A DNA stretch of 64,000 nucleotides from Dehalococcoidia bacterium (lineage in GTDB: Bacteria; Chloroflexota; Dehalococcoidia; Lucifugimonadales; UBA2985): NCBI GenBank assembly GCA_034421435.1, contig DAOUKJ010000048.1, forward strand, positions 1,240-65,239, written 5' to 3'. The translations under genes and the position numbers were made by a program. This document shows positions 1,878-33,658 of this stretch, in pieces. The notes beneath the pieces are model-generated. The model made no database searches and had not been told where the DNA came from. It saw only the letters and a program-made list of their open reading frames with translations. The first letter of the stretch is position 1; every line of letters begins with the position of its first letter.

Positions 1878-2570
1878 GTGACCGGCAATCAGGCGCTTGA
1901 AGACCTCAACCGCAGGGTAGTCGACTGCCTCCTGTGCCCGCGGCTCGTGGAGCACAGGGAGCGCACCGCCCGAGAGAAGCGCGCCATGTACCGCGACGAC
2001 GACTATTGGGGCAGGCCGCTTCCGTCGTTCGGCGACCCGCAGGCCCGCGTGCTGATAGTCGGCCTTGCGCCCGCGGCGCACGGCGGGAACCGCACGGGGC
2101 GCATGTTCACCGGCGACAGCAGCGGCGACTGGCTCTTCGAGACGCTCCACAAGTTCGGATTCGCAAGCTCACCAACCTCGCGGCGCCGCGACGACGGGCT
2201 GACCTTGATGGACGCCTACATCACCGCGGCCGTGCGCTGCGCGCCGCCGGACAACAAGCCCACGACCGAGGAGAAGGCCACGTGCCGCTCATATCTCACG
2301 GGCGAGCTGTCGCTGCTGGCGGACGTGCGTGTGGTGGTGGCCCTGGGCAGGATCGCGTTCGACGGCTACCTGGCTGCACGGCGGGAGATGGGCCGCGTGG
2401 CAGCCAGGCCTGCGCCGCGGTTCGGCCACGGGACCGTGCACGCGCTGCCGAATGGCGTGACGCTGGTGTCGTCGTACCACCCCAGCCGTCAGAACACCAA
2501 CACCGGCACACTGACGCGCCGGATGTTCGAGGATGTGTTTGCCAGAGTGCGGCAGCTGCTGGATGGCTAG
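1878..2570 (+). CDS. Uracil-DNA glycosylase, family 4/5 (UdgB-like)
   Basis: Has the N-terminal CLLCPRL cysteines and the GLAPAAHGGNRTGRMFTGD motif, with a C-terminal SYHPS motif. GTG start. Confidence 0.75.
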   Translation: MTGNQALEDLNRRVVDCLLCPRLVEHRERTAREKRAMYRDDDYWGRPLPSFGDPQARVLIVGLAPAAHGGNRTGRMFTGDSSGDWLFETLHKFGFASSPTSRRRDDGLTLMDAYITAAVRCAPPDNKPTTEEKATCRSYLTGELSLLADVRVVVALGRIAFDGYLAARREMGRVAARPAPRFGHGTVHALPNGVTLVSSYHPSRQNTNTGTLTRRMFEDVFARVRQLLDG

Positions 2571-2905
2571 CCGTACAGGGTGTCGGTCTTCGCCGCCATG
2601 ATGAAGTCGTTGCGGTGGAGCCCGCGAATCTTGTGGGTCCACCACGTGACCGTCACCCTGCCCCACTCCGTCACGATCCGCGGATGGTGGCCCTCCTCCT
2701 CGGCGGCCTCACCCACGCTGTGGCTGAAGGCAAGGGCATCGGCGAAGTTGGGGAAGCTGAAGGTGCGATTCAGGCGCTGCATCGAGTCCTCCTCCAGCAG
2801 ATCCCAGTCGGCAACCTGTGGATGCAGCTCAGCGACCTCCTCGTCGGTGACCAGCGGCGAGTCCCTGCGGCACGCCACGCACTTTTCGCGATTGAGCATC
2901 GTCAT
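2567..2905 (-). CDS. 4a-hydroxytetrahydrobiopterin (pterin-4a-carbinolamine) dehydratase
   Basis: 112 aa. ...FSFPNFADALAFSHSVGEAAEEEGHHPRI...WGRVTVTWWTHKIRGLHRNDFIMA is the PCD family pattern. Confidence 0.85.
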   Translation of the reverse strand: MTMLNREKCVACRRDSPLVTDEEVAELHPQVADWDLLEEDSMQRLNRTFSFPNFADALAFSHSVGEAAEEEGHHPRIVTEWGRVTVTWWTHKIRGLHRNDFIMAAKTDTLYG

Positions 2906-3001
2906 GTTCGACCTCCTCTGCCTCTGCGATTCGACCGCCCCCAGGCCAACTCCCTTAGCGTGGGCCCAGAGCCCCGTAGACCCCTGCCTACGCAGGGGTG
3001 G

Positions 3002-3517
3002 TCAATCTTGCGGTTCCCTCAGCCGCCGCAGCAGGTTCGCCATCTCGATTGCGGACAGCGCCGCATCGTAGCCGCGGTTGCCGGCATCGCCGCCGGCCCT
3101 CGCCAGCGCCTGCCCCTCCGTGTAGGTCGTCTGGATGCCGAACGCCATCGGCACGCCTGTCTCCCTCGACGTCTCCGCAACGCCCCTAGCCGCCTCAGCG
3201 GCCACATAGTCGAAGTGAGCGGTCTCGCCCTTGATGACGGCGCCGAGGCATATCAGCGCGTCCCACTGGCCGCTGCGGGCCAACTCGGCGGCCGCAAGTG
3301 GCACCTCGAACGAGCCGGGCACCCAGATCACAGCCAGGTCGTCCTCCCGCAGTCCGTGGGCCAAGAGAGCCTCGCACGCGCCATCAACCAGCCTGGACGT
3401 GACGAACCTGTTGAAGCGAGCCACCACCACGCCGATCCGCAGGCCCTGCGCGTCCAGCCCGCCGGCGATTCGAAGTCCGGGGCCGCCCTCGTCCTCCTCG
3501 TAGGAAGGGCCCTTCAA
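3002..3517 (-). CDS. ribH: 6,7-dimethyl-8-ribityllumazine synthase
   Basis: [19 protein letters not shown]...[12 protein letters not shown]...[14 protein letters not shown]. It is the last gene of the rib operon. Confidence 0.9.
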
Positions 3518-4728
3518 CTCCTGGCCTCCCCCATTCCCAGCAGGTGGCCAAGCTTCTGGTGCTTGGTCTCCATGTACCGCTCGTTTTCGGGCGTAGGAGG
3601 CACGACTATGGGAACACGCTCCACCAGCCTGATGCCGTATGCCTCCAGCCCTATCACCTTCTTGGGGTTGTTGGTGAGCAATCGCATGTTCCTCACACCC
3701 AGATCGACCAGTATCTGCGCACCTATGCCGTAGTGGCGGAGGTCCGGCCCAAAGCCCAGGCTGGCATTGGCCTCCACGGTGTCAAGCCCGGTGTCCTGAA
3801 GGGCATAGGCCTTGATCTTGTTGTGAAGCCCAATGCCGCGGCCCTCTTGCCTCATGTACAGGAAGACGCCCTTGCCCTCCTCTGCAATGAGGCGCAACGC
3901 CAGCCCCACCTGCGCGCCGCAGTCGCACCGCTTGCTGCCGAACACGTCTCCGGTCAGGCACTCGCTGTGCACCCTCACCAGCACCGGGTCGTCAGGGCCA
4001 ACCTCACCCAGGACCAGCGCCAGGTGCTCTGCCGTGTCGACCTCGCTGCTGAAGGCAACCGCGGTGAACTCACCGAAACCGGTGGGGAGCCTGGCCTCCG
4101 CGACGCGCTGCACCATGTTCTCGTGCATCCGCCGGTATGCGATGATCTGGGCCACGCTGATTATCAGCAGGCCGTGGGTCTCGGCGAATACTTCCAGGTC
4201 CGGCATCCGGGCCATGGTGCCGTCATCCTTCAGGATCTCGCAGAGGACGGCCGCGGGGTATAGGCCGGCCAGCCTGGCAAGGTCGATGGAGCCTTCCGTC
4301 TGGCCCGCCCTCACTAGCACTCCGCCTTCCTGGTATCGCAGCGGAAAGAGATGGCCGGGCCTCGCCAGGTCCTCAGGCCTCGTGTCAGGGTCCAGCATGG
4401 CGCGGATTGTGACGGCCCTGTCGAACGCCGAGACGCCCGTGGTGGTCCCGTGAGTGGCGTCGACCGAGACTGTGAAGGCCGTGGTGAAGCGGGAGGTGTT
4501 GTCCGATACCATCATCGGCAGCCCAAGCTCCTGCAGACGCTGCGCTGTGAGCGGAATGCACACCAGCCCTCGGCCGTGCGTGACCATGAAGTTTACGGAC
4601 TCCGGCGTCGCCATCTCAGCGGCGACTATGAGGTCGCCCTCGTTCTCCCGGTCCTCATCGTCGACCAGGATCACGGGCTTGCCGTCACGATAGTCCTGAA
4701 TCGCCTCTTCAATCGTAGCCAGTGCCAT
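3514..4728 (-). CDS. ribBA: Bifunctional 3,4-dihydroxy-2-butanone-4-phosphate synthase / GTP cyclohydrolase II
   Basis: [16 protein letters not shown] (DHBPS motif) and [20 protein letters not shown] (GCHII motif). I chose the start at [10 protein letters not shown] (ATG 4728); the longer ORF to 4929 overlaps ribE. Confidence 0.9.
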
Positions 4729-4763
4729 GTTGCGCCCTCCGCGGGGGACGGATGCTCGGATCG

Positions 4764-5363
4764 CTACGCGGAAGGCCTTTGCTGCATCCTGGGCAGCAAC
4801 AGCCTCTCCACGTACTTTGCCAGGATGTCCACCTCCAGGTTCACCGGATCGCCCGGCGCCAGGTGGCCCAGGTTGGTGTGCTTCAATGTATATTCTACCA
4901 CAGAGACCAGGAACGACTCTTCGTCGCACTCCACCACCGTGAGGCTCACACCGTCCACGGCGATGAACCCCTTCTCCACCACGTACCGCGCCAGCCGCTG
5001 CGGCATGCTGAACCGCATCAGCACCGCCTCACCTTCCGGCTGCGCGTCCACCAGCGATCCGGTGGCGTCCACGTGCCCCTGCGTGATGTGCCCTCCCAGC
5101 GGGGTGTTGAGCGTGAGCGCGGGTTCCAGGTTGACCGGGTCGCCCGGCTTCAGCGAGCCCAGGTTCGTGCGCCTGAGCGTCTCCGGCATCGTGTCAACGG
5201 AGAACCAACCGTCGCCCCTGGCCGTGACCGTGAGACAAGCGCCGTTGACGGAAACGCTGTCACCGTCGCGCAGCGCCGCCAGCGTGGTCTCGGCCTCAAC
5301 CCTCATGCCGGAGCCGTCCCGCTCCCGCAGCCTGCCGACCTCCTGCACTATGCCCGTGAACAT
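4764..5363 (-). CDS. ribE: Riboflavin synthase alpha chain
   Basis: 199 aa starting [10 protein letters not shown], with the duplicated lumazine-binding repeat ...[13 protein letters not shown] / ...[11 protein letters not shown]. Confidence 0.9.
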
Positions 5364-5368
5364 CAGCG

Positions 5369-6451
5369 CTACCTCACGTATCCCGTAATCATCACGTCTT
5401 CGCCAATCAGCTCAGTCTTGGAGCGCGTGAGACGTAAGGCTGTGGCCATTGCATCAGCTCCGGCGCCGGCCACAGGTGTTGGAGCGTCACGCCCCCCGAT
5501 TACGACTGGTGAGACGAAAGCCACCACCTTATCGACCAGGCCTAGGTCGAACATCGAACCCAGCAGCACGCCTCCTCCCTCCACCAGCAGGCTTGTCACA
5601 CCCCTGTCGCCCAGGGCCTGCATCAGCGCCTCTAAGTCCACGAGTCCGTTCCCCGCGGGCAGTTGTGCAATATCCGCAACAGCCTCCCCCATGGCAGCCG
5701 CCCTCTCGGCGGCCGCACTGGGCGTTGCGAGGAACACCCGGCCGGGCTCACGCAGGAGCTGCGCGTCCGGCGGCAGCAATGCAGCGCCCTCGACTACTAC
5801 CCGCAGCGGCTGCCTCGGCAGATTGCACCCCGTTTCGTCGCGGGCGGTTAGTCGTGGATCGTCAGCCAGGACGGTGCCTATGCCTACTATCACCGCGTCA
5901 GACTGGCGCCTCAGTTCCCCGGCGCGGCGTCTCGCCTCCTCTGAGCTGATCCAGCGAGAGTCGCCCGATGAGGTCGCTATCTTGCCATCCAGGCTCATTG
6001 CAAACTTGGCAGTAACGAACGGCCTGCCCGTCTCCACGTGCCTGGTGTACGCTTCCACCACCTGCCGGGCCTCGTCGCCGCACTCATTTAGGTGTACGTT
6101 CAGGCCCGCGCCTTCCAGTTCAGTCACGCCCTTGCCGTTCACCAGGGGATTGGGGTCGAGCGTGGCCACGTGAACGTCGGTGATTCCTGCTTTGATGATG
6201 TCGCGCGTGCACGGGGGAGTCTTGCCGAAGTGGCAGCAGGGCTCCAGTGTGGTGTAAAGGTGCCCACCGTGGGCAAGCTCGCCAGCCTGCCGCAGCGCCA
6301 TGATCTCCGCGTGCGCCTGGCCCGCCGGAAGCGTGTGACCCTCACCCACCACCTGCCCGTCCTTCACCACGACCGCGCCCACGGGCGGGTTGGGACTCGA
6401 CAGTCCTAGGGCCTCACGCGAGAGCTCCAAGGCGCGCTGCATGTAGCCCAT
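5369..6451 (-). CDS. ribD: Bifunctional diaminohydroxyphosphoribosylaminopyrimidine deaminase / 5-amino-6-(5-phosphoribosylamino)uracil reductase
   Basis: Deaminase zinc motif HAEIMAL...EPCCHFGKTPPC, followed by a C-terminal reductase domain. Confidence 0.9.
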   Translation of the reverse strand: MGYMQRALELSREALGLSSPNPPVGAVVVKDGQVVGEGHTLPAGQAHAEIMALRQAGELAHGGHLYTTLEPCCHFGKTPPCTRDIIKAGITDVHVATLDPNPLVNGKGVTELEGAGLNVHLNECGDEARQVVEAYTRHVETGRPFVTAKFAMSLDGKIATSSGDSRWISSEEARRRAGELRRQSDAVIVGIGTVLADDPRLTARDETGCNLPRQPLRVVVEGAALLPPDAQLLREPGRVFLATPSAAAERAAAMGEAVADIAQLPAGNGLVDLEALMQALGDRGVTSLLVEGGGVLLGSMFDLGLVDKVVAFVSPVVIGGRDAPTPVAGAGADAMATALRLTRSKTELIGEDVMITGYVR

Positions 6452-6456
6452 GCGCC

Positions 6457-7029
6457 CTATCCGCTAGGGTTGAAGTCCCTGTGAATCCTGCTCGCGGTGG
6501 GCTCCATCTGCCCCTGGTACTTGCTTCCCAAAGCCGGCGAGCCGTATGGATTGTCCGCTTCCGAGGTCAGCCGCAGGAAGGAGATTTGGCCTATCTTCAT
6601 GGCGTAGTAGAGGGTGATGGGTAGGTTGGCCACGTTGCTCAGCTCCAGCGTCAGGTGGCCTGACCAGCCGGGGTCGACGTAGCCGGCCGTGGAGTGGATG
6701 AGCAACCCCAGCCTGCCGAGCGAGCTCTTGCCCTCCAGCCGCGCCACGATGTCCACTGGGAGCGTCACCGCCTCAAGGGTGCTGCCCAGAACGAACTCGC
6801 CGGGGTGCAGGATGAAGGGGCCCTCCTCCGGTATCTCCTCCACCTCCGTAAGGTCCGGCATGTCCCGTCGCACGTCTATGTACGGCTGGCGCGTGTTGCG
6901 GAACACCAGCAGCCTCCGGTCCAGGTGCAGGTCAACGCTTGCGGGCTGAATGCAGGAGGGATCGAGGGGGTCGATGACGATCCTGCCCCCGTCCAGCTCC
7001 TCCCTGATTGTGCGATCGCTGAGTACCAT
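6457..7029 (-). CDS. dcd: dCTP deaminase
   Basis: [12 protein letters not shown]...[28 protein letters not shown] chose the start at ATG 7029. The stop lies 5 nt upstream of the ribD start. Confidence 0.85.
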
Positions 7030-7192
7030 GCGCTCCTCTCGAGGTCGGTGTGGACGGCGAAACGACGGGAGAATTCTAGCAGTCCACCAGGGGTATCGCA
7101 ATCCGACGGCGAGCGATTAGTGAATTCTCCCCATTTGCATTATAATTCCCTAATCCGGCCTTAATCCAGACGCGCTGCCACTACGTATATGT

Positions 7193-7780
7193 ATGTGGAG
7201 CGGCGGCACTCGACCAAGAGGGGACGCCGTGGAATACCACCTTCTGGAGGACTTAGAGCTGACTTCTCTGGTCGCATCTGGGGACCAGCAGGCCCTTGCG
7301 GCCCTTTACGACCGTCACGCCTCCAGGGTCTTCTCCCTGGCTCTCTCGCTCCTGGGGAACTACAGTGACGCCGAGGAGGTTACGCAGGACGTAATCATGT
7401 CTGTCTGGCAGAACAGCGGCTCTTACGACCCACTGAAAGCCCGCTTCGCCACCTGGATTACGCGCATTGCGCACAATCGCGCCGTGGACGAGCTCAGGAG
7501 AAGGCGCAAGCGAGCCGACGAGTCCCGCCTTGAAGACCATGAGATCGCGCGACCGGACACCACGGAGTCCGGCATCGAATACGAGACGGTCCGCAGCGCA
7601 CTCTTCGATCTGCCGGAGGAGCAGCGCAGGGTGGTGTACCTGGGCTTCTTCCAGGGATACACGCACACGGAGATAGCAAGGATGCTGGACAGGCCGCTGG
7701 GCACCGTGAAGACCCAGATGAGGTCAGCCCTCAGACTGCTTAGAGATCGGGTCACCGCATCGGCGGAGGAAGTGCTATGA
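7193..7780 (+). CDS. ECF-type RNA polymerase sigma factor
   Basis: Region 2 (FATWITRIAHNRAVDELRRR) and region 4 (EQRRVVYLGFFQGYTHTEIARMLDRPLGTVKTQM). The stop overlaps the next gene by 4 nt. Confidence 0.85.
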   Translation: MWSGGTRPRGDAVEYHLLEDLELTSLVASGDQQALAALYDRHASRVFSLALSLLGNYSDAEEVTQDVIMSVWQNSGSYDPLKARFATWITRIAHNRAVDELRRRRKRADESRLEDHEIARPDTTESGIEYETVRSALFDLPEEQRRVVYLGFFQGYTHTEIARMLDRPLGTVKTQMRSALRLLRDRVTASAEEVL

Positions 7781-13612: not shown

Positions 13613-13687
13613 CCCATAGATGGCCGACCAGAAAAGGAACGGCCGCCCCCATCAGGCAGGCGACCAATCGAGAACAAGCTATGGTCC

Positions 13688-13785
13688 GGCACTCTCCCTC
13701 CGCTGGCATTACCCAGATCAGGTGCTCAGGGTCGCCCCGATGTGTCGGGGCCTCTCAGCCTGGCTCACCAAGCTCCCCTCAGGCC
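13688..13785 (-). promoter_or_regulatory. TPP (THI-box) riboswitch
   Basis: The minus strand reads ggtgagccaggCTGAGAggccccgacacatcggggcgACCCTGAgcACCTGATCTGGGTAATGCCAGCGgAGGGAg. This is a near-textbook THI element about 75 nt upstream of the ABC ATPase start. Confidence 0.85.
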
Positions 13786-13924
13786 CTATGCTGTTGTGAC
13801 TCGCGCGTGAGTATAGCGCGGGCGGCGGAGGGAGTCAACGGCGCAGGCCGCCTCCTCCCACAACGTACGGACGGGACAATTGCAATGCAACACCTCGGCT
13901 GATTGCAACATCAGAGATAAAGAG

Positions 13925-26408: not shown

Positions 26409-26617
26409 CCCGGCACGGCGGGTGGGGAAGGGCGGGGAGAGATGGATCAGGGCTGCATGACCACCTCTTTATGCACCGAATTGGCCTCTGTATTTGACGT
26501 ACGTTATTGCCATCTATGAGTGCCTTTCCGAACGTAATCTGATACACTGGCAATGCCGAATCGAATAGCAACCCGCTGGCATGTGAACGTATCGGTTGGA
26601 CGGGCCAGGTACCAGAA

Positions 26618-27553
26618 TTGAGCCCTGAAATATACCCTCAGCTTCCTCTACCCGTCACGGATGAAGGCGATTCCTGGCAGGCCACCAGGCCTGCCAGGGC
26701 CGCGCGATCCAAGAAAGCTAACGAATTGGATGGCAGAACGTGGCAGCGATATTCGATTAGCGTTTGGAGTGATATTCGGAAGACCCCAGAGGAACTCCGA
26801 CTAGGTCATCCAGCGATATTTCCTATGCAACTTGTTATGAGGATAATCGAGTGTTTCACATCGAAAGAGGACACCACTGTCCTAGATCCGTTCTGTGGTA
26901 TTGGTTCTACGCCAATTGCAGCTGAACTCCTTGGGAAGCATGGAATTGGCATAGACCTCGAATCTCGATTCTGCAGTATTGCACGTGAGAGGCACCCCTC
27001 AGTCATCTACGAGTTCGACCCGGACGGCACGCATCAAGGTAAGACCCTCCAAGGTGGAGCACGAATCGCGGACGAGTCCGGCACGAGAACTATTCACTGC
27101 GACGACGCGAGAAATCTCCTGAGTCACGTATCCAGAGATTCAATAGATTTGGTGGTCACATCTCCGCCCTATTGGGACATATTGCTCCAAAGCAGGTCCG
27201 CGGATCAGAAGGCAATCCGCAACTACGGGCAGTCTGAGCGAGACATAGGCAGAATCCCCGGATATTTGGAATTCTTGGAAGCGCTTACCGATGTCTTCCA
27301 ACCTACCTATTGCGCGCTTAGGCCAGGGGGATACTGCGTAGTGATCGTTATGGACTTGAGAAAGAAGAATCAATTCTATCCACTGCATGCTGACCTGGCA
27401 CACCAAATGCAGGAGATTGGCTTCATATATGACGACCTAATCATTTGGGATCGCAGACACGAATACAACAACATGAGGCCGCTCGGACATCCCTATAAGT
27501 TCAGAGTCAACAAAGCCCACGAATACGTGTTGATCTTTCAGAAGCCAAGCTAA
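26618..27553 (+). CDS. DNA methyltransferase, N4/N6 (SPPY) type, with motif I upstream of motif IV
   Basis: HPAIFPMQLVMRIIECFTSKEDTTVLDPFCGIGSTPIAA...GIDLE (motifs X/I/II), then DLVVTSPPYWD (motif IV), ending ...NKAHEYVLIFQKP. TTG start with a weak RBS. The gene is lower in G+C than its flanks. Confidence 0.8.
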   Translation: MSPEIYPQLPLPVTDEGDSWQATRPARAARSKKANELDGRTWQRYSISVWSDIRKTPEELRLGHPAIFPMQLVMRIIECFTSKEDTTVLDPFCGIGSTPIAAELLGKHGIGIDLESRFCSIARERHPSVIYEFDPDGTHQGKTLQGGARIADESGTRTIHCDDARNLLSHVSRDSIDLVVTSPPYWDILLQSRSADQKAIRNYGQSERDIGRIPGYLEFLEALTDVFQPTYCALRPGGYCVVIVMDLRKKNQFYPLHADLAHQMQEIGFIYDDLIIWDRRHEYNNMRPLGHPYKFRVNKAHEYVLIFQKPS

Positions 27554-27565
27554 AGTGATGCAAGC

Positions 27566-28498
27566 ATGAGCTACGAGCTGGACTACATGGATGAGGATGT
27601 TGCGTATCTGCTGGGTATGCTTGTTGCACGCGGCGAGGTGATTAGCGGTGAAGGTCTCAATCGCATAATCATTCACTTCCCTAGGGGGCCTCTGTTGGCT
27701 CAAGGCATTAATCTCTCGTTCGATACAGATACTGAGATTCGTCTCGGCATTGAGAAGATTCGTGAACGCGTAGCGGAGCTGCTCGGGGGAGACATTCAGA
27801 CGGTTGTAGGAGATGCCAGCATTGACCTAGTAGTACAGTTCACACGCTCTACCATCGCGTGGCGCGATATTCGAATGCTCCTCAATTACAAGACCAGCTT
27901 CCCCTACTTCCGCATACCTGACCTGTTCTTCGAAGATGGCATCCCGATAGATTGGATCAGAGAGTTCGTGAAAGGCTACTCAGACGTGGCCGGGAATCTG
28001 CGCCCGGCCAATCGGGACCAAGCAGGGAGGTATCGTGTGAGACTCGACACGTTGAATTACCCCTCGAACTGGGAAACACCCGTCAAGCTATGTTTGCTCC
28101 TACAAGACCGTTTGAACGTGCCGGTACCTAGCGTAATCTGGGGCCATCCGAATCTGGGACGAGAATGGCGCGAGCATCAACTCAATGTCTATCCAGAGGA
28201 CTTTCTAAATGTTGGGTTCTACTTCGGATACAAACAGAAAGTACTTGAGGAACTCGCGCGCCACAACAGTTTGAGATTTGCCATCTCCACTAAAGGCTGT
28301 CCTGGTCAGAGGGAGGTGAGAGGAGCCAAGCCCCCGCATGCCGCAGAGGATGACGAGCGGAGATTGCCATCTGAATTGGTAGGCAAGCATTTCAACGGCT
28401 ACTGGCAAATCTGCCGCCAATTGGGATGCCCGAGACGCCCTGATCCCCAAGAGCAGCTAACCCTCGACTTTGAGTCTGACGCAGACGATGAGCAGTGA
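27566..28498 (+). CDS. Hypothetical protein with two degenerate LAGLIDADG-like motifs
   Basis: 310 aa. AYLLGMLVARGE (aa 13-24) and FVKGYSDVAGN (aa 134-144) are spaced about 120 aa apart, as in single-chain LAGLIDADG proteins. Both canonical catalytic Asp positions are non-acidic (R22, A142). It starts 12 nt after the methyltransferase stop. Confidence 0.45.
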   Translation: MSYELDYMDEDVAYLLGMLVARGEVISGEGLNRIIIHFPRGPLLAQGINLSFDTDTEIRLGIEKIRERVAELLGGDIQTVVGDASIDLVVQFTRSTIAWRDIRMLLNYKTSFPYFRIPDLFFEDGIPIDWIREFVKGYSDVAGNLRPANRDQAGRYRVRLDTLNYPSNWETPVKLCLLLQDRLNVPVPSVIWGHPNLGREWREHQLNVYPEDFLNVGFYFGYKQKVLEELARHNSLRFAISTKGCPGQREVRGAKPPHAAEDDERRLPSELVGKHFNGYWQICRQLGCPRRPDPQEQLTLDFESDADDEQ

Positions 28499-28988
28499 AG
28501 TTGCCATGTACGCGCCTGTCGCGGAGTGGTTTCAGGCGTTTTTGAAGGGAAGATTGCCGAGGACTCTTGTTGAGGTTCACGACACCCATGCCATGCCTCT
28601 CAATGGCTACATAAGACGGCTCGGCCTATTTGATTACTTTGACTCAGATTTGTGGGAGACGTTCGATATACGCGTAGACGTCACCGCCTTCCTTTCGGGA
28701 AGAATCAAAGGCGTGGCATTTGTAGAGTGCAAGACTACCGCCATCTCTCTGAGCCATATTTCGCAGCTGTTGGGCTATTCCAGGGTCGCTTTGCCTCAGT
28801 TCTCATATCTCATCTCGAGCAGCGGCATCGGGGGGAATGTCAGATCTATCCTACAGAGCCACGGACGTGTCGACGTCTTGGAGTACGATTGGCCGCGAGG
28901 CAGCGAACCAAAAAGGTTAGTGCTTGCCAAATGGGACTCCATGACAAGGAGCCTCGACGCGACAACTATATTCCCTCCAGGTGCATAG
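28488..28988 (+). CDS. PD-(D/E)xK-like (restriction-endonuclease-fold) protein
   Basis: FDIRVDVTAF...GVAFVECKT gives a D...ExK arrangement. ATG 28488 overlaps the upstream stop (alternative ATG 28506). Confidence 0.5.
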   Translation: MSSEVAMYAPVAEWFQAFLKGRLPRTLVEVHDTHAMPLNGYIRRLGLFDYFDSDLWETFDIRVDVTAFLSGRIKGVAFVECKTTAISLSHISQLLGYSRVALPQFSYLISSSGIGGNVRSILQSHGRVDVLEYDWPRGSEPKRLVLAKWDSMTRSLDATTIFPPGA

Positions 28989-29048
28989 ACTTGAAGTCAT
29001 ACCGCCTCTCGGCGGCACTTCAGGGCCAGCGCGAAAGGCAGTCGCCCC

Positions 29049-29547: not shown

Positions 29548-29645
29548 TTAAGCCCGCGCGTCTATGGCCTCACGGATGAGGTCCGCGACGGCCGACAAGG
29601 CCGTGGGGCCGAGGTCGCTGCCATCGCGCAGGCGCACGGACACCG
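29548..29645 (-). pseudogene. Displaced duplicate of the thrS 3' end
   Basis: Encodes ...SVRLRDGSDLGPTALSAVADLIREAIDARA*, versus the ThrS C-terminus ...SVRLRDGSDLGPTAVSAVADLIREAIDARA*. Manual alignment of 29551-29645 against 31904-31998 gives 10 mismatches in 95 nt. Confidence 0.85.
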
Positions 29646-29701
29646 AATCTGACTCAGTTACCCAATCTAGAATGCCAAAGGCGAAGCGGTGAGTGGCAAA
29701 C

Positions 29702-31150
29702 CTAGCTGAAAAGCGACCGCTGCCTTGCAGGTTGGTATGATCGAAACACGCAACTTTGGCCCGAGTCAAACGCAGTCTTTGCGAGCAACATAGTACCACC
29801 GCCGCGACGCTTGATTTGCTGTGAACTCACGCTTCTGACCCATCCCAGACCAAATAATGGATGACTTACGCGCTGACCCTGATACACCTGGCGGTTTACA
29901 GAAAGCCGAACTACATCTCGCGTCTCAAACTGGTCCTGATTGTGATCAACATATAGGTCGTTGCCAGATGCCTCTCGGAGCGCAATTCTTGTTAACGCTT
30001 CCGCAACACGGAGAAAGTAACCATAATCCTGCATCGCGTTTGCCCATCTGTCGGGAATGGCCATCTGCCCCCTCCGCGCGCAAATCAGCCCACCTACCAT
30101 CGCAGCTATTGTGTCTGTGTCAGAACCGAGCATATTTACAGCCCTCACTATTGCCTTCTCGTAATTCCCCCCATGCCGGAGAAATACGCCAATGGCTGCG
30201 GCTACTGTTGCTGTTCCCGACCCCTTGGTCTTCGGATCCAGACACCCCATCTCCAGGTACAAATCTCCTAGGGAAGTTTCTAGCTTCGAAGCCTTGGACA
30301 GCAGGAACACCATTTCATTCTTGGTCTCCTCAAACAAGATGGCGAATGAACTCCCGGAATGTTGCTGCCACGACCGCATCCATTCTTGTATTGAGTCGGG
30401 AAGTGTCTCAAGACTTAGCCCAGTCACATAATCTTCTAGAGCGCCAAGGAACTCTTCGCTGCCTGATGATTCATCTCTGATAAGGGTGTGGAGGGCTTTT
30501 GCGTACACCAAGGCGCCTAGAATGGCCCGCGGGTGACCGTGGGTTACGATGGAGTTTTCCCATACAGCGCATGTCAACATAGTCTCGTCTCCTCTGTTGG
30601 CAAGTGCCAACGGAGAAACCCTCATCGCTGCGCCGTTTGCGCCAGCATCCATATAGCTGGTTTTCCTGCCTTTGCTCTCAAATGAGAAAAAATTGCTGTT
30701 CCAAGCAACCCTCTTTCTCGAGGCAGCCTTGGCGGCACGCGTGACGGTCGCACCAGCACCTCTAGCATAGGCAAGCCAATTCGGGAGTTCACGCTTGGCG
30801 AAGTGTTGCCCGTCAAAGGAACCATCTGGTCGTAAGGACCGCGCAGTGCTCAATGTGAGTTGCGTATCGTCCGAATAGTCCCCTGGTTGGATGTAGTCGA
30901 TGTAGGCGTTGAATCTGCCCCCGGTCAACTTCTCCCAAGGGATAAAGTCTCGAACCTCTTCAGCACCATGAAGTCTCTCGAGTTGAGCCTTAGTCTTGAT
31001 GAACTCCGTAGGCCAACCTAGGGCATCCGCGACTGCCGAGCCGAGCAAGACTCCCGAGAATCTGTCCCTTAGGTCATCGCAGGGCTCAAACTCATCAATA
31101 AGCTGATGACCTTCGTTCCACGCATTGGTCTCCAGCATGGGCCTCACCAC
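29702..31150 (-). CDS. ADP-ribosylglycohydrolase (ARH/DraG family) with an ~100-aa C-terminal extension
   Basis: DRFSGVLLGSAVADALGWPTEF, GDYSDDTQLTL and LGSDTDTIAAMVGGLICARRGQMAIPDRW are the ARH signatures. The C-terminal GQRVSHPLFGLGWV resembles a PcrA/UvrD Tudor-like motif. The start is GTG 31150 or ATG 31138 (preceded by GGTGAGG). Confidence 0.85.
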   Translation of the reverse strand: MVRPMLETNAWNEGHQLIDEFEPCDDLRDRFSGVLLGSAVADALGWPTEFIKTKAQLERLHGAEEVRDFIPWEKLTGGRFNAYIDYIQPGDYSDDTQLTLSTARSLRPDGSFDGQHFAKRELPNWLAYARGAGATVTRAAKAASRKRVAWNSNFFSFESKGRKTSYMDAGANGAAMRVSPLALANRGDETMLTCAVWENSIVTHGHPRAILGALVYAKALHTLIRDESSGSEEFLGALEDYVTGLSLETLPDSIQEWMRSWQQHSGSSFAILFEETKNEMVFLLSKASKLETSLGDLYLEMGCLDPKTKGSGTATVAAAIGVFLRHGGNYEKAIVRAVNMLGSDTDTIAAMVGGLICARRGQMAIPDRWANAMQDYGYFLRVAEALTRIALREASGNDLYVDHNQDQFETRDVVRLSVNRQVYQGQRVSHPLFGLGWVRSVSSQQIKRRGGGTMLLAKTAFDSGQSCVFRSYQPARQRSLFS

Positions 31151-31164
31151 CTTCCCTACATTTG

Positions 31165-31809
31165 CTAATACCTGCCTCTAAACTGGTTGGCACCAACCAA
31201 CAACCTATAGGACTCAGTAACGGCTCTTCCATCAGGTAAATTGACTCCCCAGAGTTCGTTCAGTGCGTAGTCTTTCGACTGCTCACTGTGAAAGAACATT
31301 AGGGGAATAAAGTATGCCAAGTCTATGCTGTGGGGAATCAAGATTTCACCCGGAGCTGGCGAAGGAAAATCGGTTGTTGAGTTTTGGAACATTGAATCGA
31401 ACACCCTAGCAGTATTGTTGCGGAGGAGGCTAGAAAGTGTAATTTCGTTATGGGAACTCCAGTCTGGTGAGAACAAGGTGCCATCACGCCAAAGGAGGCT
31501 TGGTTGAAGTTGAAGCAATACCTTGCTGTCAGAATCGTGTCTAGCCATGCCCCAAGGAGAGGCGAGCGAACAACAGATGTAATCCTTCAACTCTTCATCT
31601 TTCCCAGCCGCGCCCCAACTGCTCATGTCATAGGCAATTCCTGCCTGATCCATCTTGGCTCTACTCAACAAACCTCTCTTCGAGAAGATTGACTTCAGGT
31701 GATCTACACGACTCAAGTGCCAAAGTCGCTGAATCCGACGCCTCCGAACGATCGATTCAATGGCATCTGCGTCCGCGGAGCGTTCAAATGACCGATCTGC
31801 ATTCTCCAT
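31165..31809 (-). CDS. DarT-like (DUF4433-like) ADP-ribosyltransferase
   Basis: 214 aa. LWHLSRVDHLKSIFSKRGLLS, KDYICCSLASPWGM and GEILIPHSIDL parallel DarT (I)YH(I)TH..NL.SIL..G.L, DYVPFYF and AEFLV. This is motif-level recognition only. Confidence 0.55.
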   Translation of the reverse strand: MENADRSFERSADADAIESIVRRRRIQRLWHLSRVDHLKSIFSKRGLLSRAKMDQAGIAYDMSSWGAAGKDEELKDYICCSLASPWGMARHDSDSKVLLQLQPSLLWRDGTLFSPDWSSHNEITLSSLLRNNTARVFDSMFQNSTTDFPSPAPGEILIPHSIDLAYFIPLMFFHSEQSKDYALNELWGVNLPDGRAVTESYRLLVGANQFRGRY

Positions 31810-31900
31810 TCGAGAGTATTGTACAGGAAGCTGTCAATTGACTGGAGTTTCTCCTGACGCAATCCCCAATAGGATGAAATGCCTGAACTAACTCTACTCC

Positions 31901-33658
31901 TCACGCCCGCGCGTCTATGGCCTCGCGGATGAGGTCCGCCACGGCGGACACTGCCGTGGGGCCGAGGTCGCTGCCGTCTCGCAGGCGCACCGACGCCGTC
32001 TCCGCCTCCGCCTCCTTGTCGCCCACCACCAGCATGTACGGCACCTTCTGGAGCTGCGCGTGGCGTATCTTGGCGTTCATCCGCTCCGAGCGGTCGTCCA
32101 CGTCAACGCGGATGTTGTGCTGCTTGAGCCTCTGCGATACTTCTTGGGCGTAGTCGATGTGCCTGTCTGCGATCGGTATGACGACCGCCTGCACGGGCGC
32201 AAGCCACACCGGGAATGCCCCGGCGTAGTGCTCGATCAGCACGCCGAAGAACCGCTCCATCGACCCCAGCAGGGCTCTATGCACCATGTAGGGACGGTGC
32301 TCGCGGCCGTCCTCGCCCACGTAGGTCACGTCGAACCGCTCAGGCAGGTTGAAGTCGAACTGGATGGTGGTGCACTGCCACTCGCGGCCCAGTGCGTCCA
32401 CCATCTTCACGTCGATCTTGGGGCCGTAGAACACGGCGCCGCCCTCGTCCTCCTCGTAGGGTAGACCGCGGGAGCGGATCACGTCTCGCAGAGCCTCCGT
32501 CGCCATGTTCCAGTCCTCCAGGGAGCCGGCGAACTTGCCGCCCTCGTTGCGGGTGGACAGATAGACGTTGAACTCCTGGAACCCGAAGGCGTTCAGGAAG
32601 AATCGCATGAAGTCGACGCAGCCTTCAAGCTCGTCTCGAACCTGGTCAGGGCGGCAGAAGATGTGGGCGTCGTCCTGGGTGAATCCTCGGACGCGCAGGA
32701 GGCCGTGGAGCACACCGGAGCGCTCGTAGCGGTACACGGTGCCCAGCTCGCCCAGTCGGATGGGAAGCTCACGGTAGCTCCTGAGCGAGGTCTTGTATAT
32801 CTGGATGTGGAACGGGCAGTTCATGGGCTTCACGTAGTAGTCCTGGCCGTCCACGTCCATGGGCGAGTACATGTTCTCGGCGTAGAAGTCCAGGTGGCCG
32901 CTGGTTTCCCACAGCGTGGACTTGCCGATGTGAGGCGAATAGACCAGCTCGTAGCCGGCGCGGTAGTGCTCCCGGCGCCAGAAGTCCTCGATGACGCTGC
33001 GTATGCGGCCGCCCTTGGGGTGCCAGAACGCCAGCCCAGGCCCGTAGTCCTCGTGGAACGACAGCAGGTCGAGCTCGCGGCCCAGCCTGCGATGATCGCG
33101 GCGCTGCGCCTCCTCCAGGCGCGCCAGGTGGTCGTCGAGTGCGTCTGCGGTCTCGAATGCGGTGCCGTAGATGCGCTGCAGCATCGGGCGATGCTCGTCG
33201 CCGCGCCAGTATGCGCCGGCCACGTTCAGCAGCCTGTAGGCGCTGATCTTGCCCGTGGACGCCACGTGAGGCCCCTGGCACAGGTCGGCAAACTCACCGT
33301 GGCGGTAGATGCTGATAGTCTCATCCTCAGGCAGGTCTTCGATGATCTCCAGCTTGAAGGGCTGCTCCGCGAACATGCGAATGGCGTCCTCGCGGCTCAG
33401 CTCCTCGCGCACGAACGGCATGTCGCTGTCGATGGTCTGCCGGATGTGGTCATTGATGGCCTCCAAGTCCTCCGGGGTGAAGGGCCTGGAAACCTGGAAG
33501 TCGTAGTAGAAGCCGTCGGCGGTCGGCGGGCCGATGCCCAGCTTGGCGTCCGGGAACAGGCGCGTCACGGCGTCGGCCATGACGTGCGAGGCGGAGTGGC
33601 GCATCCGCTCGCGGAGTGCGTCTACCTCTGTATCTGCGTGTGCGTGCTGAATGCTCAT
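31901..33658 (-). CDS. thrS: Threonine--tRNA ligase (no N-terminal TGS domain)
   Basis: 585 aa beginning at the editing-domain HSASHVMADA...FYYDF region, followed by the class II core and anticodon-binding domain. Confidence 0.9.
   Translation of the reverse strand: MSIQHAHADTEVDALRERMRHSASHVMADAVTRLFPDAKLGIGPPTADGFYYDFQVSRPFTPEDLEAINDHIRQTIDSDMPFVREELSREDAIRMFAEQPFKLEIIEDLPEDETISIYRHGEFADLCQGPHVASTGKISAYRLLNVAGAYWRGDEHRPMLQRIYGTAFETADALDDHLARLEEAQRRDHRRLGRELDLLSFHEDYGPGLAFWHPKGGRIRSVIEDFWRREHYRAGYELVYSPHIGKSTLWETSGHLDFYAENMYSPMDVDGQDYYVKPMNCPFHIQIYKTSLRSYRELPIRLGELGTVYRYERSGVLHGLLRVRGFTQDDAHIFCRPDQVRDELEGCVDFMRFFLNAFGFQEFNVYLSTRNEGGKFAGSLEDWNMATEALRDVIRSRGLPYEEDEGGAVFYGPKIDVKMVDALGREWQCTTIQFDFNLPERFDVTYVGEDGREHRPYMVHRALLGSMERFFGVLIEHYAGAFPVWLAPVQAVVIPIADRHIDYAQEVSQRLKQHNIRVDVDDRSERMNAKIRHAQLQKVPYMLVVGDKEAEAETASVRLRDGSDLGPTAVSAVADLIREAIDARA

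Follow-up and report, generated by a model that had tools for sequence, protein, structure and literature searches.

A helicase-free gene pair for a DarT-like ADP-ribosyltransferase and an ARH-fold hydrolase inserted next to thrS in a Dehalococcoidia genome: relation to DarHTG and other DarT systems

The DarT systems serve as a model both for reversible ADP-ribosylation of DNA and for toxin-antitoxin phage defence, and the partners of DarT are replaceable, the antitoxin of DarTG1 being a NADAR domain (PMC11543638). A described and validated phage-defence system to which the locus considered here has to be compared in the first place is DarHTG (DarH-DarT-DarG3; Liu et al., NAR, April 2026, PMC13069673). 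According to that article, DarG3 is most similar to ADP-ribosylglycohydrolases and not to macrodomain or NADAR DarGs, the ATP-binding site of the helicase DarH is required for defence, and the system occurs in below 0.5% of E. coli with a bias towards Bacteroidota and Thermodesulfobacteriota. In sequence comparisons with DarHTG the helicase-DarT-ARH operon of a Salmonella plasmid and the E. coli chromosome was used as a proxy for the published system; this operon (helicase-DUF4433-ARH in Salmonella, present with 100% identity in 21 of 5426 E. coli genomes) agrees in architecture, frequency and taxonomic distribution with the published description of DarHTG. A Marinicella locus of DarHTG type gave no match to the E. 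coli genomes in a “distant” blastn comparison. The designations “DarT3/DarG3” in a Vibrio preprint were rejected as citation superscripts, not protein names. The window, that is, the whole analysed stretch of 64,000 nucleotides from a Dehalococcoidia bacterium, contains a gene pair that the initial annotation interpreted as an undescribed hybrid of a DarT-fold writer with an ARH-fold eraser. The pairing itself stands and is conserved, but the claim of an undescribed architecture must be abandoned, since DarHTG with its ARH-like DarG3 is already published (PMC13069673) and the window’s ARH is homologous to the ARH of the E. coli/Salmonella operon (32% identity, E 4e-50). Moreover, a single set of profiles for DarT, helicase and ARH recognises loci of both types. 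Relative to DarHTG, what is new at the window is the absence of the helicase, the divergent sub-clade of its DarT and a Tudor-like domain on the ARH; no mention of such a domain was found in the passages of the DarHTG article that were consulted.

Both genes are encoded on the minus strand. The darT-like gene (31165..31809, 214 aa), specifying a DarT-fold ADP-ribosyltransferase as putative toxin, precedes the gene for an ARH-fold ADP-ribosylglycohydrolase (29702..31150, 482 aa if counted from the GTG start), a putative antitoxin of DarG3 type, and the reading of the ORFs leaves between them 14 nt to this GTG or 26 nt to the ATG at 31138. Re-examination confirmed the two co-directional ORFs with the spacing given in the initial annotation, the toxin-first order known from darT-darG and, in the two translations, every motif that had been quoted. 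The Shine-Dalgarno-like element GGGAAGGTGGTGAGG (31142..31156, minus strand) precedes the ATG at 31138, where translation of the ARH probably starts, giving 478 aa, rather than at the GTG. No comparable element was found ahead of darT, and a consensus scan of its upstream region returned no sigma-70-type site; a TACAAT was read there by eye only.

The low-GC islet reported earlier was likewise recovered, with a GC content of 0.50-0.56 over 29.5-32.0 kb versus ~0.65 in the flanks, and GC3 amounts to 0.52-0.56 in the darT and ARH genes versus 0.89 in thrS and prfB. The insert of 2.35 kb contains these two genes alone and is enclosed by a direct repeat of 104 nt (copies 88% identical), a duplication of the 3′ end of thrS, whose ORF (31901..33658) lies upstream of darT. 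The proximal copy (31905..32008) is the functional thrS 3′ end and the distal copy (29552..29655), at the far edge of the insert, a displaced non-functional one; the translation of ORF 29548..29799 is the C-terminal peptide of thrS. Shorter counterparts of the distal repeat are present in the relatives L001 and L003. A tRNA-linked integration site was considered and rejected, tRNA genes being absent from the window. A type II methyltransferase islet adjoins the insert, with no convincing flanking repeats found around it. The PADLOC scan of neighbour genes was dominated by GajB-like matches to helicases.

At least four related genomes carry the pair at this site, which would suit a housekeeping role in the control of replication or growth rather than phage defence, as proposed for DarTG of M. 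tuberculosis, which controls replication and gene expression (PMC12170906). We regard such a role as highly improbable in view of the strongly foreign GC3, a module dS 2-10 times as high as in the genes on either side, the mosaic pattern of toxin and antitoxin similarity, the repeat-bounded insert lying beside other cassettes, and the patchy distribution of the DarT-ARH family over phyla, with members on plasmids and in BREX loci, where the cyanobacterial versions lie. The foreign GC3, flanking repeats, methyltransferase islet, BREX settings, high dS and mosaic similarity argue instead for a horizontal, defence-type origin.

The DarT-like nature of the upstream protein, suggested initially from motifs, is supported by both profile and structure. 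The protein scores 28.4 bits against Pfam DarT PF14487 (gathering score 22.5), the match spanning its residues 30-179 and profile positions 1-177 of 201, and the AF2 model (pLDDT 86.6) adopts the DarT fold: in the PDB Foldseek yields eight matches at E below 1e-3, every one of them a DarT, and neither type of search places the protein outside the ART superfamily. The best structural match is E. coli DarT1 8baq (TM 0.70/0.72, rmsd 3.2 Å, 207 columns), to which the family profile of the window DarT also matches at E 1.9e-13; at the sequence level DarT2 is marginally similar (E 0.72), and the PADLOC DarT model gives a weak match to the protein (15.9 bits). The product of the first gene is a DarT-fold ADP-ribosyltransferase nearer to guanine-specific DarT1 than to thymine-specific DarT2. 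Mapping of the DarT1 residues with assigned roles (R52, M71, base-coordinating N104 and E152; PMC11543638) showed that H31 and E155 correspond to the conserved catalytic His of the NAD site and the ART Glu (E152 of DarT1), M88 aligns with M71, the position of N104 is taken by W117 (motif WSS), a Trp invariant in the window’s clade, and R52 pairs with Lys70 or with Glu, according to the alignment used. A residue census of ARH-linked DarT domains found the catalytic His in 76/80 and the Glu in 78/80. The window’s DarT belongs to a divergent sub-clade with Trp in place of Asn, and since this clade differs from DarT1 at two of the four key positions, its activity or target could differ as well.

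The downstream protein, read from the outset as an ADP-ribosylglycohydrolase, matches Pfam PF03747 (ADP_ribosyl_GH) with 189 bits over residues 33-368 (30047..31054, minus strand), the catalytic core that is helical in the AF2 model (pLDDT 91.3, pTM 0.91). Foldseek matches of this model are ARH proteins only, including MJ1187 (TMt 0.88), DraG, ARH3 and Tri1, and a Listeria ART-ARH immunity protein is also among the closest structural neighbours. Among 50 homologues no variation occurs at D42, E49, S93-D94-D95 and D344-T345-D346-T347, and we take these residues to match the metal ligands of ARH3 and DraG. The fold and the binuclear-metal motifs D..G..E, S-D-D-T and D-T-D-T are those of the ARH/DraG superfamily, and the NCBIfam equivalog scores in the DraG/Tri1-type comparison are far under the cut-offs (77.7 vs 337 and 62.3 vs 490). 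Profile searches with Pfam, PADLOC and NCBIfam returned no macro or NADAR domain in the 482-aa protein, which thereby differs from the antitoxins of canonical DarTG. The second gene encodes a Mg-type ARH/DraG-fold hydrolase with every metal-binding motif present. ARH-fold enzymes tested so far do not remove guanine-linked ADP-ribose (PMC11833690), and de-ADP-ribosylation of a base by an ARH would thus be unprecedented.

Beyond the catalytic core the ARH carries a small C-terminal beta-domain (residues ~422-473; 29732..29887, minus strand), for which the initial annotation noted a Tudor-like motif and which is built of four strands with pLDDT above 90 in the AF2 model. It displays the motifs GQRVSHPLFGLGWV and FDSGQSCVF and is conserved across the family, H430, G436, F461 and Q465 being invariant. 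Its likeness to UvrD is suggested by sub-significant matches: the UvrD C-terminal-domain entries 7egt, 7egs and 6yi2 rank first, third and fourth among six weak PDB matches (E 0.1-0.8), and an hhalign comparison with the C-terminal domain of E. coli UvrD, for which the UvrD sequence was entered by hand, gives 86.7% probability and E 4.4e-6. Single-sequence Pfam searches with C-terminal domains of the family yielded weak hits to PcrA_UvrD_tudor (E 0.17, one member) and CarD_TRCF_RID (0.13) and no match for the window’s own domain, for which profile methods alone pointed to UvrD. The domain thus may resemble the C-terminal Tudor domain of UvrD/PcrA.

This resemblance makes RNA polymerase, or a factor associated with it, a candidate target should the transferase modify protein or RNA, with the ARH reversing an Arg or Ser linkage as in a pair of DraT/DraG or Tre1/Tri1 kind. 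Such an arrangement would accord with the action of known ARH-fold enzymes on protein Arg/Ser linkages or phosphate ends and the inactivity of those assayed on guanine adducts (PMC11833690), with DraG, Tri1 and the Listeria immunity protein as structural neighbours, and with the Trp that the window clade has instead of the base-contacting residue of DarT1 and DarT2. We nevertheless find it unlikely, because the sole significant structure and sequence relatives of the transferase are the DNA-modifying DarT1 and DarT2, the DarT1 motifs TNAA and QAE(I/V)LV are kept by most ARH-linked DarTs, and a nucleic-acid substrate is suggested by the helicase that accompanies the pair in the sister clade.

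To follow the pair through other genomes, 79 loci were chosen only by the presence of a long ARH. A DarT ORF lies directly upstream on the same strand in 67 of the 79, within 3 kb in four more and fused to the ARH in one; Pfam DarT is matched by 65 of 73 ORFs upstream of the long ARH. DarT-ARH gene fusions exist in both orders, and the pair recurs in dozens of unrelated genomes from several phyla, so the co-occurrence on which the initial reading depended does extend beyond the window: the DarT and ARH genes form an evolutionarily conserved unit, at times fused. A UvrD-like helicase is encoded upstream in 38 of the 65 long-ARH loci that could be decided, giving the DarH-DarT-DarG3 arrangement of DarHTG, and is absent from the other 27, the window included; searched with the helicase HMM, neither the window nor its syntenic relatives L001, L003, L009 and L011 showed a DarH-type helicase. 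Helicase-less pairs are found in Chloroflexota, Actinobacteria, Cyanobacteria, Acidobacteriota and deltaproteobacteria.

A few long-ARH loci (L016, L022, L025 and L081) have no DarT, and for ARG-centred systems that have no ART linked to them a role against viral ADP-ribosylation has been suggested (PMC9503650), so the ARH might confer immunity to transferases of phages or competitors instead of serving as the antidote of DarT; alternatively, with the helicase essential in DarHTG (PMC13069673), the pair might be a decayed, non-functional remnant of that system. Both versions appear quite improbable against the adjacency at 67/79 loci together with the fusions and against the intact motifs and purifying selection on both genes (dN/dS versus orthologues 0.11-0.19 for darT and 0.07-0.09 for the ARH). 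The remnant is further disfavoured by the phylogeny, as helicase-less loci constitute three deep, taxonomically broad clades separate from the helicase-bearing loci, not scattered recent losses.

We consider it probable that the two genes of the insert form a module of toxin-antitoxin type which belongs to the DarT family and was acquired horizontally at a cassette hotspot just after thrS. In such a module DarT would transfer ADP-ribose from NAD+ to a base of single-stranded DNA and thereby stop the replication of phage and/or host DNA, and the ARH would strip the adduct, so that the cell survives until infection tips the balance, with abortive infection or growth arrest as the defence outcome. 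An excess of antitoxin might be secured by the ribosome-binding site, which is strong on the ARH gene and missing from darT, the Tudor-like domain could tether the hydrolase to RNA polymerase, DNA or DarT, and Trp in place of the base-contacting Asn (DarT1) or His (DarT2) may direct the toxin to a target base or sequence context unlike both. Since the ATP-binding site of DarH is required in DarHTG, a module without helicase may work differently or not defend. Only tentatively, and as a joint proposition that we rather doubt, the helicase-less pairs could be the ancestral autonomous form of the DarHTG family combining an ARH active on base-linked ADP-ribose, Tudor guidance and a third DarT specificity. 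If this were true, their ARH would become the first ARH-fold enzyme shown to take ADP-ribose off a nucleobase, the UvrD-type Tudor domain would lead it to RNA polymerase or exposed single-stranded DNA, and the exchange of Asn for Trp would give the window’s sub-clade a base or sequence specificity apart from DarT1 (G) and DarT2 (T).

The window and the other helicase-less loci, 27 in all, show that the ARH-type antitoxin (DarG3) is not limited to the three-gene DarHTG, and the two-gene module occurs in several phyla thinly covered by defence catalogues. They raise the questions of whether an ARH fold can cleave the bond between base and ADP-ribose given the inactivity of the ARHs tested, what the helicase contributes to a system occurring in nature with and without it, and whether the UvrD-like Tudor domain couples antitoxin activity to transcription. 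The cassette hotspot beside thrS, where the target ends are duplicated and an integrase is absent, also offers a small clean case of defence-gene swapping in Dehalococcoidia-like genomes.

Compared with the known systems, the locus shares individual elements with each. DraT/DraG and Tre1/Tri1 have in common with it the ARH fold and metal-binding motifs of the eraser, but their writers are R-S-E ARTs acting on protein arginine, whereas the writer here is a DarT of H-Y-E type. The Tudor domain of UvrD/PcrA (7egs, 7egt, 6yi2) and the domain of the ARH are both small, beta and C-terminal and share the motifs G-x-R-V-x-H-x-x-F-G-x-G-x-V and V-x-F-x-G-Q; the former sits on a helicase and the latter on a hydrolase, with a similarity under database-wide significance. 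DarTG2 (DarT with macrodomain DarG; Thermus, M. tuberculosis, EPEC) has the same toxin fold (Foldseek E 3e-8 to 2e-5), the same logic of toxin-antitoxin pairing and an extra C-terminal domain on the antitoxin, its hydrolase being a macrodomain and that of the window a Mg-dependent all-helical ARH. The toxin finds its best match, by sequence as well as by structure, in DarTG1 (DarT1-NADAR, E. coli C7, 8baq; PMC11543638), likewise a two-gene operon with the toxin first; the catalytic Glu and the Met are kept in both, while N104 and R52 of DarT1 are set against Trp and the ambiguous Lys70/Glu, and the NADAR antitoxin against the ARH fold. With DarHTG the window shares gene order and orientation, a transferase of the DarT family coming first and an antitoxin resembling ADP-ribosylglycohydrolases second, and most helicase-containing members from Bacteroidota possess the window’s C-terminal domain (alignments to residue ~469). 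E. coli-type DarG3, in contrast, has an unrelated C-terminal region, most members of the family retain, like DarT1, the Asn that is Trp here, and the window locus belongs to a deep clade separate from DarHTG-type loci. DarHTG includes DarH with its essential ATP-binding site (PMC13069673); the insert and the locus around it are without helicase, and on sequence homology the pair is best described as a helicase-free counterpart of the DarT and DarG3 of DarHTG.

The two minus-strand reading frames proposed in the initial annotation, for a DarT-like protein of 214 aa (31165..31809) and an ADP-ribosylglycohydrolase (ARH) of 482 aa (29702..31150), are present in the window, every quoted motif being found in the translations, and the low-GC islet is likewise confirmed (GC 0.50-0.56 over the pair vs. 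~0.65 around it; GC3 0.52-0.56 vs. 0.89 for thrS and prfB). The ATG at 31138 is more probably the start of the ARH gene than the GTG, as it is preceded by the Shine-Dalgarno-like GGGAAGGTGGTGAGG and was also chosen by the gene caller for the database protein P0012; the two candidate starts account for the intergenic gap previously given as 14-26 nt. No comparable element precedes darT. A TACAAT hexamer with TG before it (31818-31823, minus strand), read by eye and uncalled by a consensus promoter scan, lies 8 nt 5′ of the darT ATG, and this position together with the missing Shine-Dalgarno element could mean that darT mRNA is leaderless or near-leaderless. The pair is flanked by a direct repeat of 104 nt (29552-29655 and 31905-32008, 88% identical), both copies corresponding to the last ~100 nt of thrS, which delimits an insert of 2.35 kb holding darT and the ARH gene only; its context is foreign and mobile. 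No tRNA was found in the window and no integrase in the 2.35-kb insert.

Thr­S-end repeats shorter than those of the window surround the DarT-ARH unit of the related locus L001 (7879-7909/10113-10143) and are also seen in L003 (7878-7917/10103-10142), which carries a second cassette, a methylase-HNH gene between its own 40-nt repeats (10143-10182/12065-12104). The site directly 3′ of thrS is a cassette hotspot in the lineage of the window, each cassette being bracketed by a target duplication of 30-104 nt with no integrase nearby. Another low-GC islet of the window (26500-29000, GC ~0.51) contains three plus-strand ORFs (26618-27553, 27566-28498, and 28470-28988), encoding a type II N4/N6 DNA methyltransferase and two products without Pfam or PADLOC match; a search for flanking repeats around it found none, and it may be a cassette for restriction-modification or for another kind of defence. 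The sole Rfam match in the window is a TPP riboswitch (RF00059, 60.9 bits, 13677-13789, minus strand).

Assignment of the 214-aa protein to DarT-like ADP-ribosyltransferases is upheld by its Pfam DarT match (28.4 bits, gathering score 22.5) and by the AF2 model (pLDDT 86.6, pTM 0.86), for which all 8 significant PDB neighbours are DarT, the top one being DarT1, the NADAR-partnered enzyme of E. coli C7 (8baq; TM 0.70/0.72, rmsd 3.2 Å). The PADLOC DarT model is matched only weakly. A word-indexed search of 5.8 billion proteins gave 11 close relatives, and an exhaustive profile search gave 774 representatives with E≤1e-3, of which 18 had E≤1e-30; the profile built from the 11 relatives (A1) matches DarT1 with E 1.9e-13 vs. 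E 0.72 for the macrodomain-partnered DarT2 of Thermus. Residues essential for DarT1 are R52, M71, N104, and E152 (PMC11543638). In the window protein, E152 and M71 are conserved as E155 and M88, and the NAD-site His as H31; the base-coordinating N104 corresponds to W117, within a WSS motif invariant across the clade of the window, and R52 to Lys70 or Glu depending on the alignment. Catalytic His and Glu are retained in 76 and 78, respectively, of 80 ARH-linked DarT domains, in which the N104 position is occupied by Asn (67) or Trp (9), the latter nine constituting the clade of the window. The nearest sister clade (P0004 and P0006, 48-52% identical, WSS kept) comes from loci having no ARH gene (L006 1282-4678, L007 5231-8627, and L008 5310-8627), where darT is divergent from an adjoining gene for a helicase of 752 aa (DEAD/Helicase_C/MZB) that PADLOC reads as SngC/BrxHI-like, amid transposases, GmrSD, and integrase.

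The 482-aa protein is an ARH-fold glycohydrolase, as initially annotated: it matches ADP_ribosyl_GH with 189 bits, and in the AF2 model (pLDDT 91.3, pTM 0.91) its core of ~370 residues superposes on MJ1187 (TMt 0.88), DraG, ARH3, Tri1, and a Listeria ART-ARH immunity protein. D42, E49, S93-D94-D95, and D344-T345-D346-T347 are invariant in 50 homologues, positions which, from established ARH3/DraG structures, we take to be metal-binding and catalytic. Scores far under the cut-offs ruled out equivalence to DraG or Tri1. As to the Tudor-like C-terminal extension, an additional four-stranded beta-domain does exist behind a low-confidence linker (residues ~422-473) and is conserved throughout the family, H430, G436, F461, and Q465 being invariant; its identity as a UvrD-type Tudor domain is likely, judging from profile comparisons. 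The domain profile (A4) finds UvrD C-terminal-domain entries as best PDB matches (7egt, E 0.1; 7egs and 6yi2, E ~0.8), and comparison by hhalign with the C-terminal domain of E. coli UvrD, in a sequence whose core is confirmed by the 7egs alignment, gives 86.7% probability (E 4.4e-6) over 40 columns encompassing both GxRVxHxxFGxGxV and VxFxGQ.

The long-ARH family comprises 694 clusters at E≤1e-10 among scored candidates, and GTDB species representatives contain at least 543 loci of it, in taxa that include Chloroflexota, Cyanobacteria, Bacteroidota, Proteobacteria, Actinobacteria, Acidobacteriota, Thermotogota, Cloacimonadota, and one archaeal MAG; it is nearly absent from IMG/VR (just 3 loci). 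Conservation of the neighbourhood, for which the initial annotation called, was surveyed in the best 79 of these at least 543 loci, picked by ARH match alone, and the operon is conserved: a DarT-like ORF lies immediately upstream on the same strand in 67, DarT and ARH are fused in one ORF in 1, a DarT domain is located 2-3 kb upstream in 4, upstream sequence is too short for decision in 3, and 4 have a long ARH without DarT. Pfam DarT is matched by 65 of 73 ORFs upstream of ARH. Fusions occur in both orders, DarT-ARH (L078 3124-5190, 689 aa) and ARH-DarT followed by a second ARH (L090 3908-5989, 694 aa). Other arrangements include two tandem ARH genes (L019 2268-7374) and, in Bacteroidota, four-gene operons of TPR-DarT (498 aa), two unknown genes, and ARH (L024, L034, and L058, ~2270-7380). 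Cyanobacterial DarT (L092, Nostoc sp. C052 plasmid pC052_C; L029 and L039) has an N-terminal extension of 350-540 aa and is situated with ARH inside BREX loci (AAA protein - DarT - ARH - PglZ - BrxL).

Among the nearest neighbours of these modules are 24 UvrD-like helicases (~505-550 aa), and of the 65 loci that could be decided, a helicase HMM located such a gene immediately ahead of DarT in 38, mostly from Bacteroidota, with no match in the remaining 27. A helicase is absent from the window, from the syntenic L001, L003, and L011-L014, and from the unrelated groundwater locus L009. In the neighbour-joining tree of ARH, the loci with a helicase group in one large clade, apart from an enterobacterial outlier, and helicase-less loci form three deep clades, namely, Chloroflexia/Acidobacteriota/delta, Chloroflexota with Actinobacteria (the window within), and cyanobacteria. 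Thus, the two-gene form is an old and widespread variant, and these deep clades argue against a recent decay product. Judged by dN/dS (0.11-0.19 for DarT, 0.07-0.09 for ARH), both genes are under purifying selection. Between genomes, dS of the module (0.5-2.7) is 2-10 times that of thrS/prfB (0.25-0.45), and the window DarT is nearest to L001 (83%, dS 0.52) while its ARH is nearest to L003 (78%, dS 1.5); this mosaic similarity along with high dS indicates toxin/antitoxin recombination or repeated replacement at a fixed hotspot rather than simple vertical descent.

In the mechanism we propose, DarT would spend NAD+ to ADP-ribosylate a base in ssDNA, with W117 possibly shifting base specificity, and ARH would strip the adduct in a Mg-dependent manner, the Tudor-like domain perhaps acting as a tether; the Shine-Dalgarno element of ARH, lacking at darT, may keep the antitoxin in excess. 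Base-adduct cleavage by an ARH is so far without precedent (PMC11833690), for which reason we retain the main rival, a protein or RNA target of the DarT-like enzyme, as an improbable alternative to the DNA-directed scheme.

Up to 2025, listed DarT antitoxins were macrodomain and NADAR proteins only (PMC11833690). The initial observation and largely its interpretation stand, but the pairing of DarT with an ARH antitoxin is not an undescribed hybrid architecture, having been published in 2026 as DarG3 of DarHTG (DarH-DarT-DarG3), a helicase-DarT-ARH system. Liu et al. (NAR, April 2026; PMC13069673) validated it against T4, T5, and T7 and reported that it is commonest in Thermodesulfobacteriota and Bacteroidota and that <0.5% of E. 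coli genomes carry it. As a stand-in for the published sequences, we used a Salmonella plasmid operon (helicase-DUF4433-ARH, 3.76 kb), which recurs with 100% identity in 21 (0.39%) of the 5426 complete genomes of E. coli. In the E. coli copies, RefSeq currently calls the helicase "3′-5′ exonuclease" and gives the other two products generic family names (e.g., NZ_CP021722.1 3045330-3049088), making the system unrecognisable from E. coli annotation. By sequence homology, the window pair can securely be placed in the DarHTG family, since its ARH is 32% identical to that of the operon over 391 residues (E 4e-50) and the operon is recognised by the DarT (1.5e-24) and helicase (5.5e-46) profiles. 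What is new in the window is a helicase-less form with a divergent toxin, within the known DarG3/DarHTG kind. Like the window, DarHTG has DarT followed by ARH but, unlike it, a UvrD-like helicase upstream; the C-terminal region of enterobacterial DarG3 differs from that of the window ARH, whereas in most Bacteroidota members the ARH alignment extends through the Tudor-like domain.
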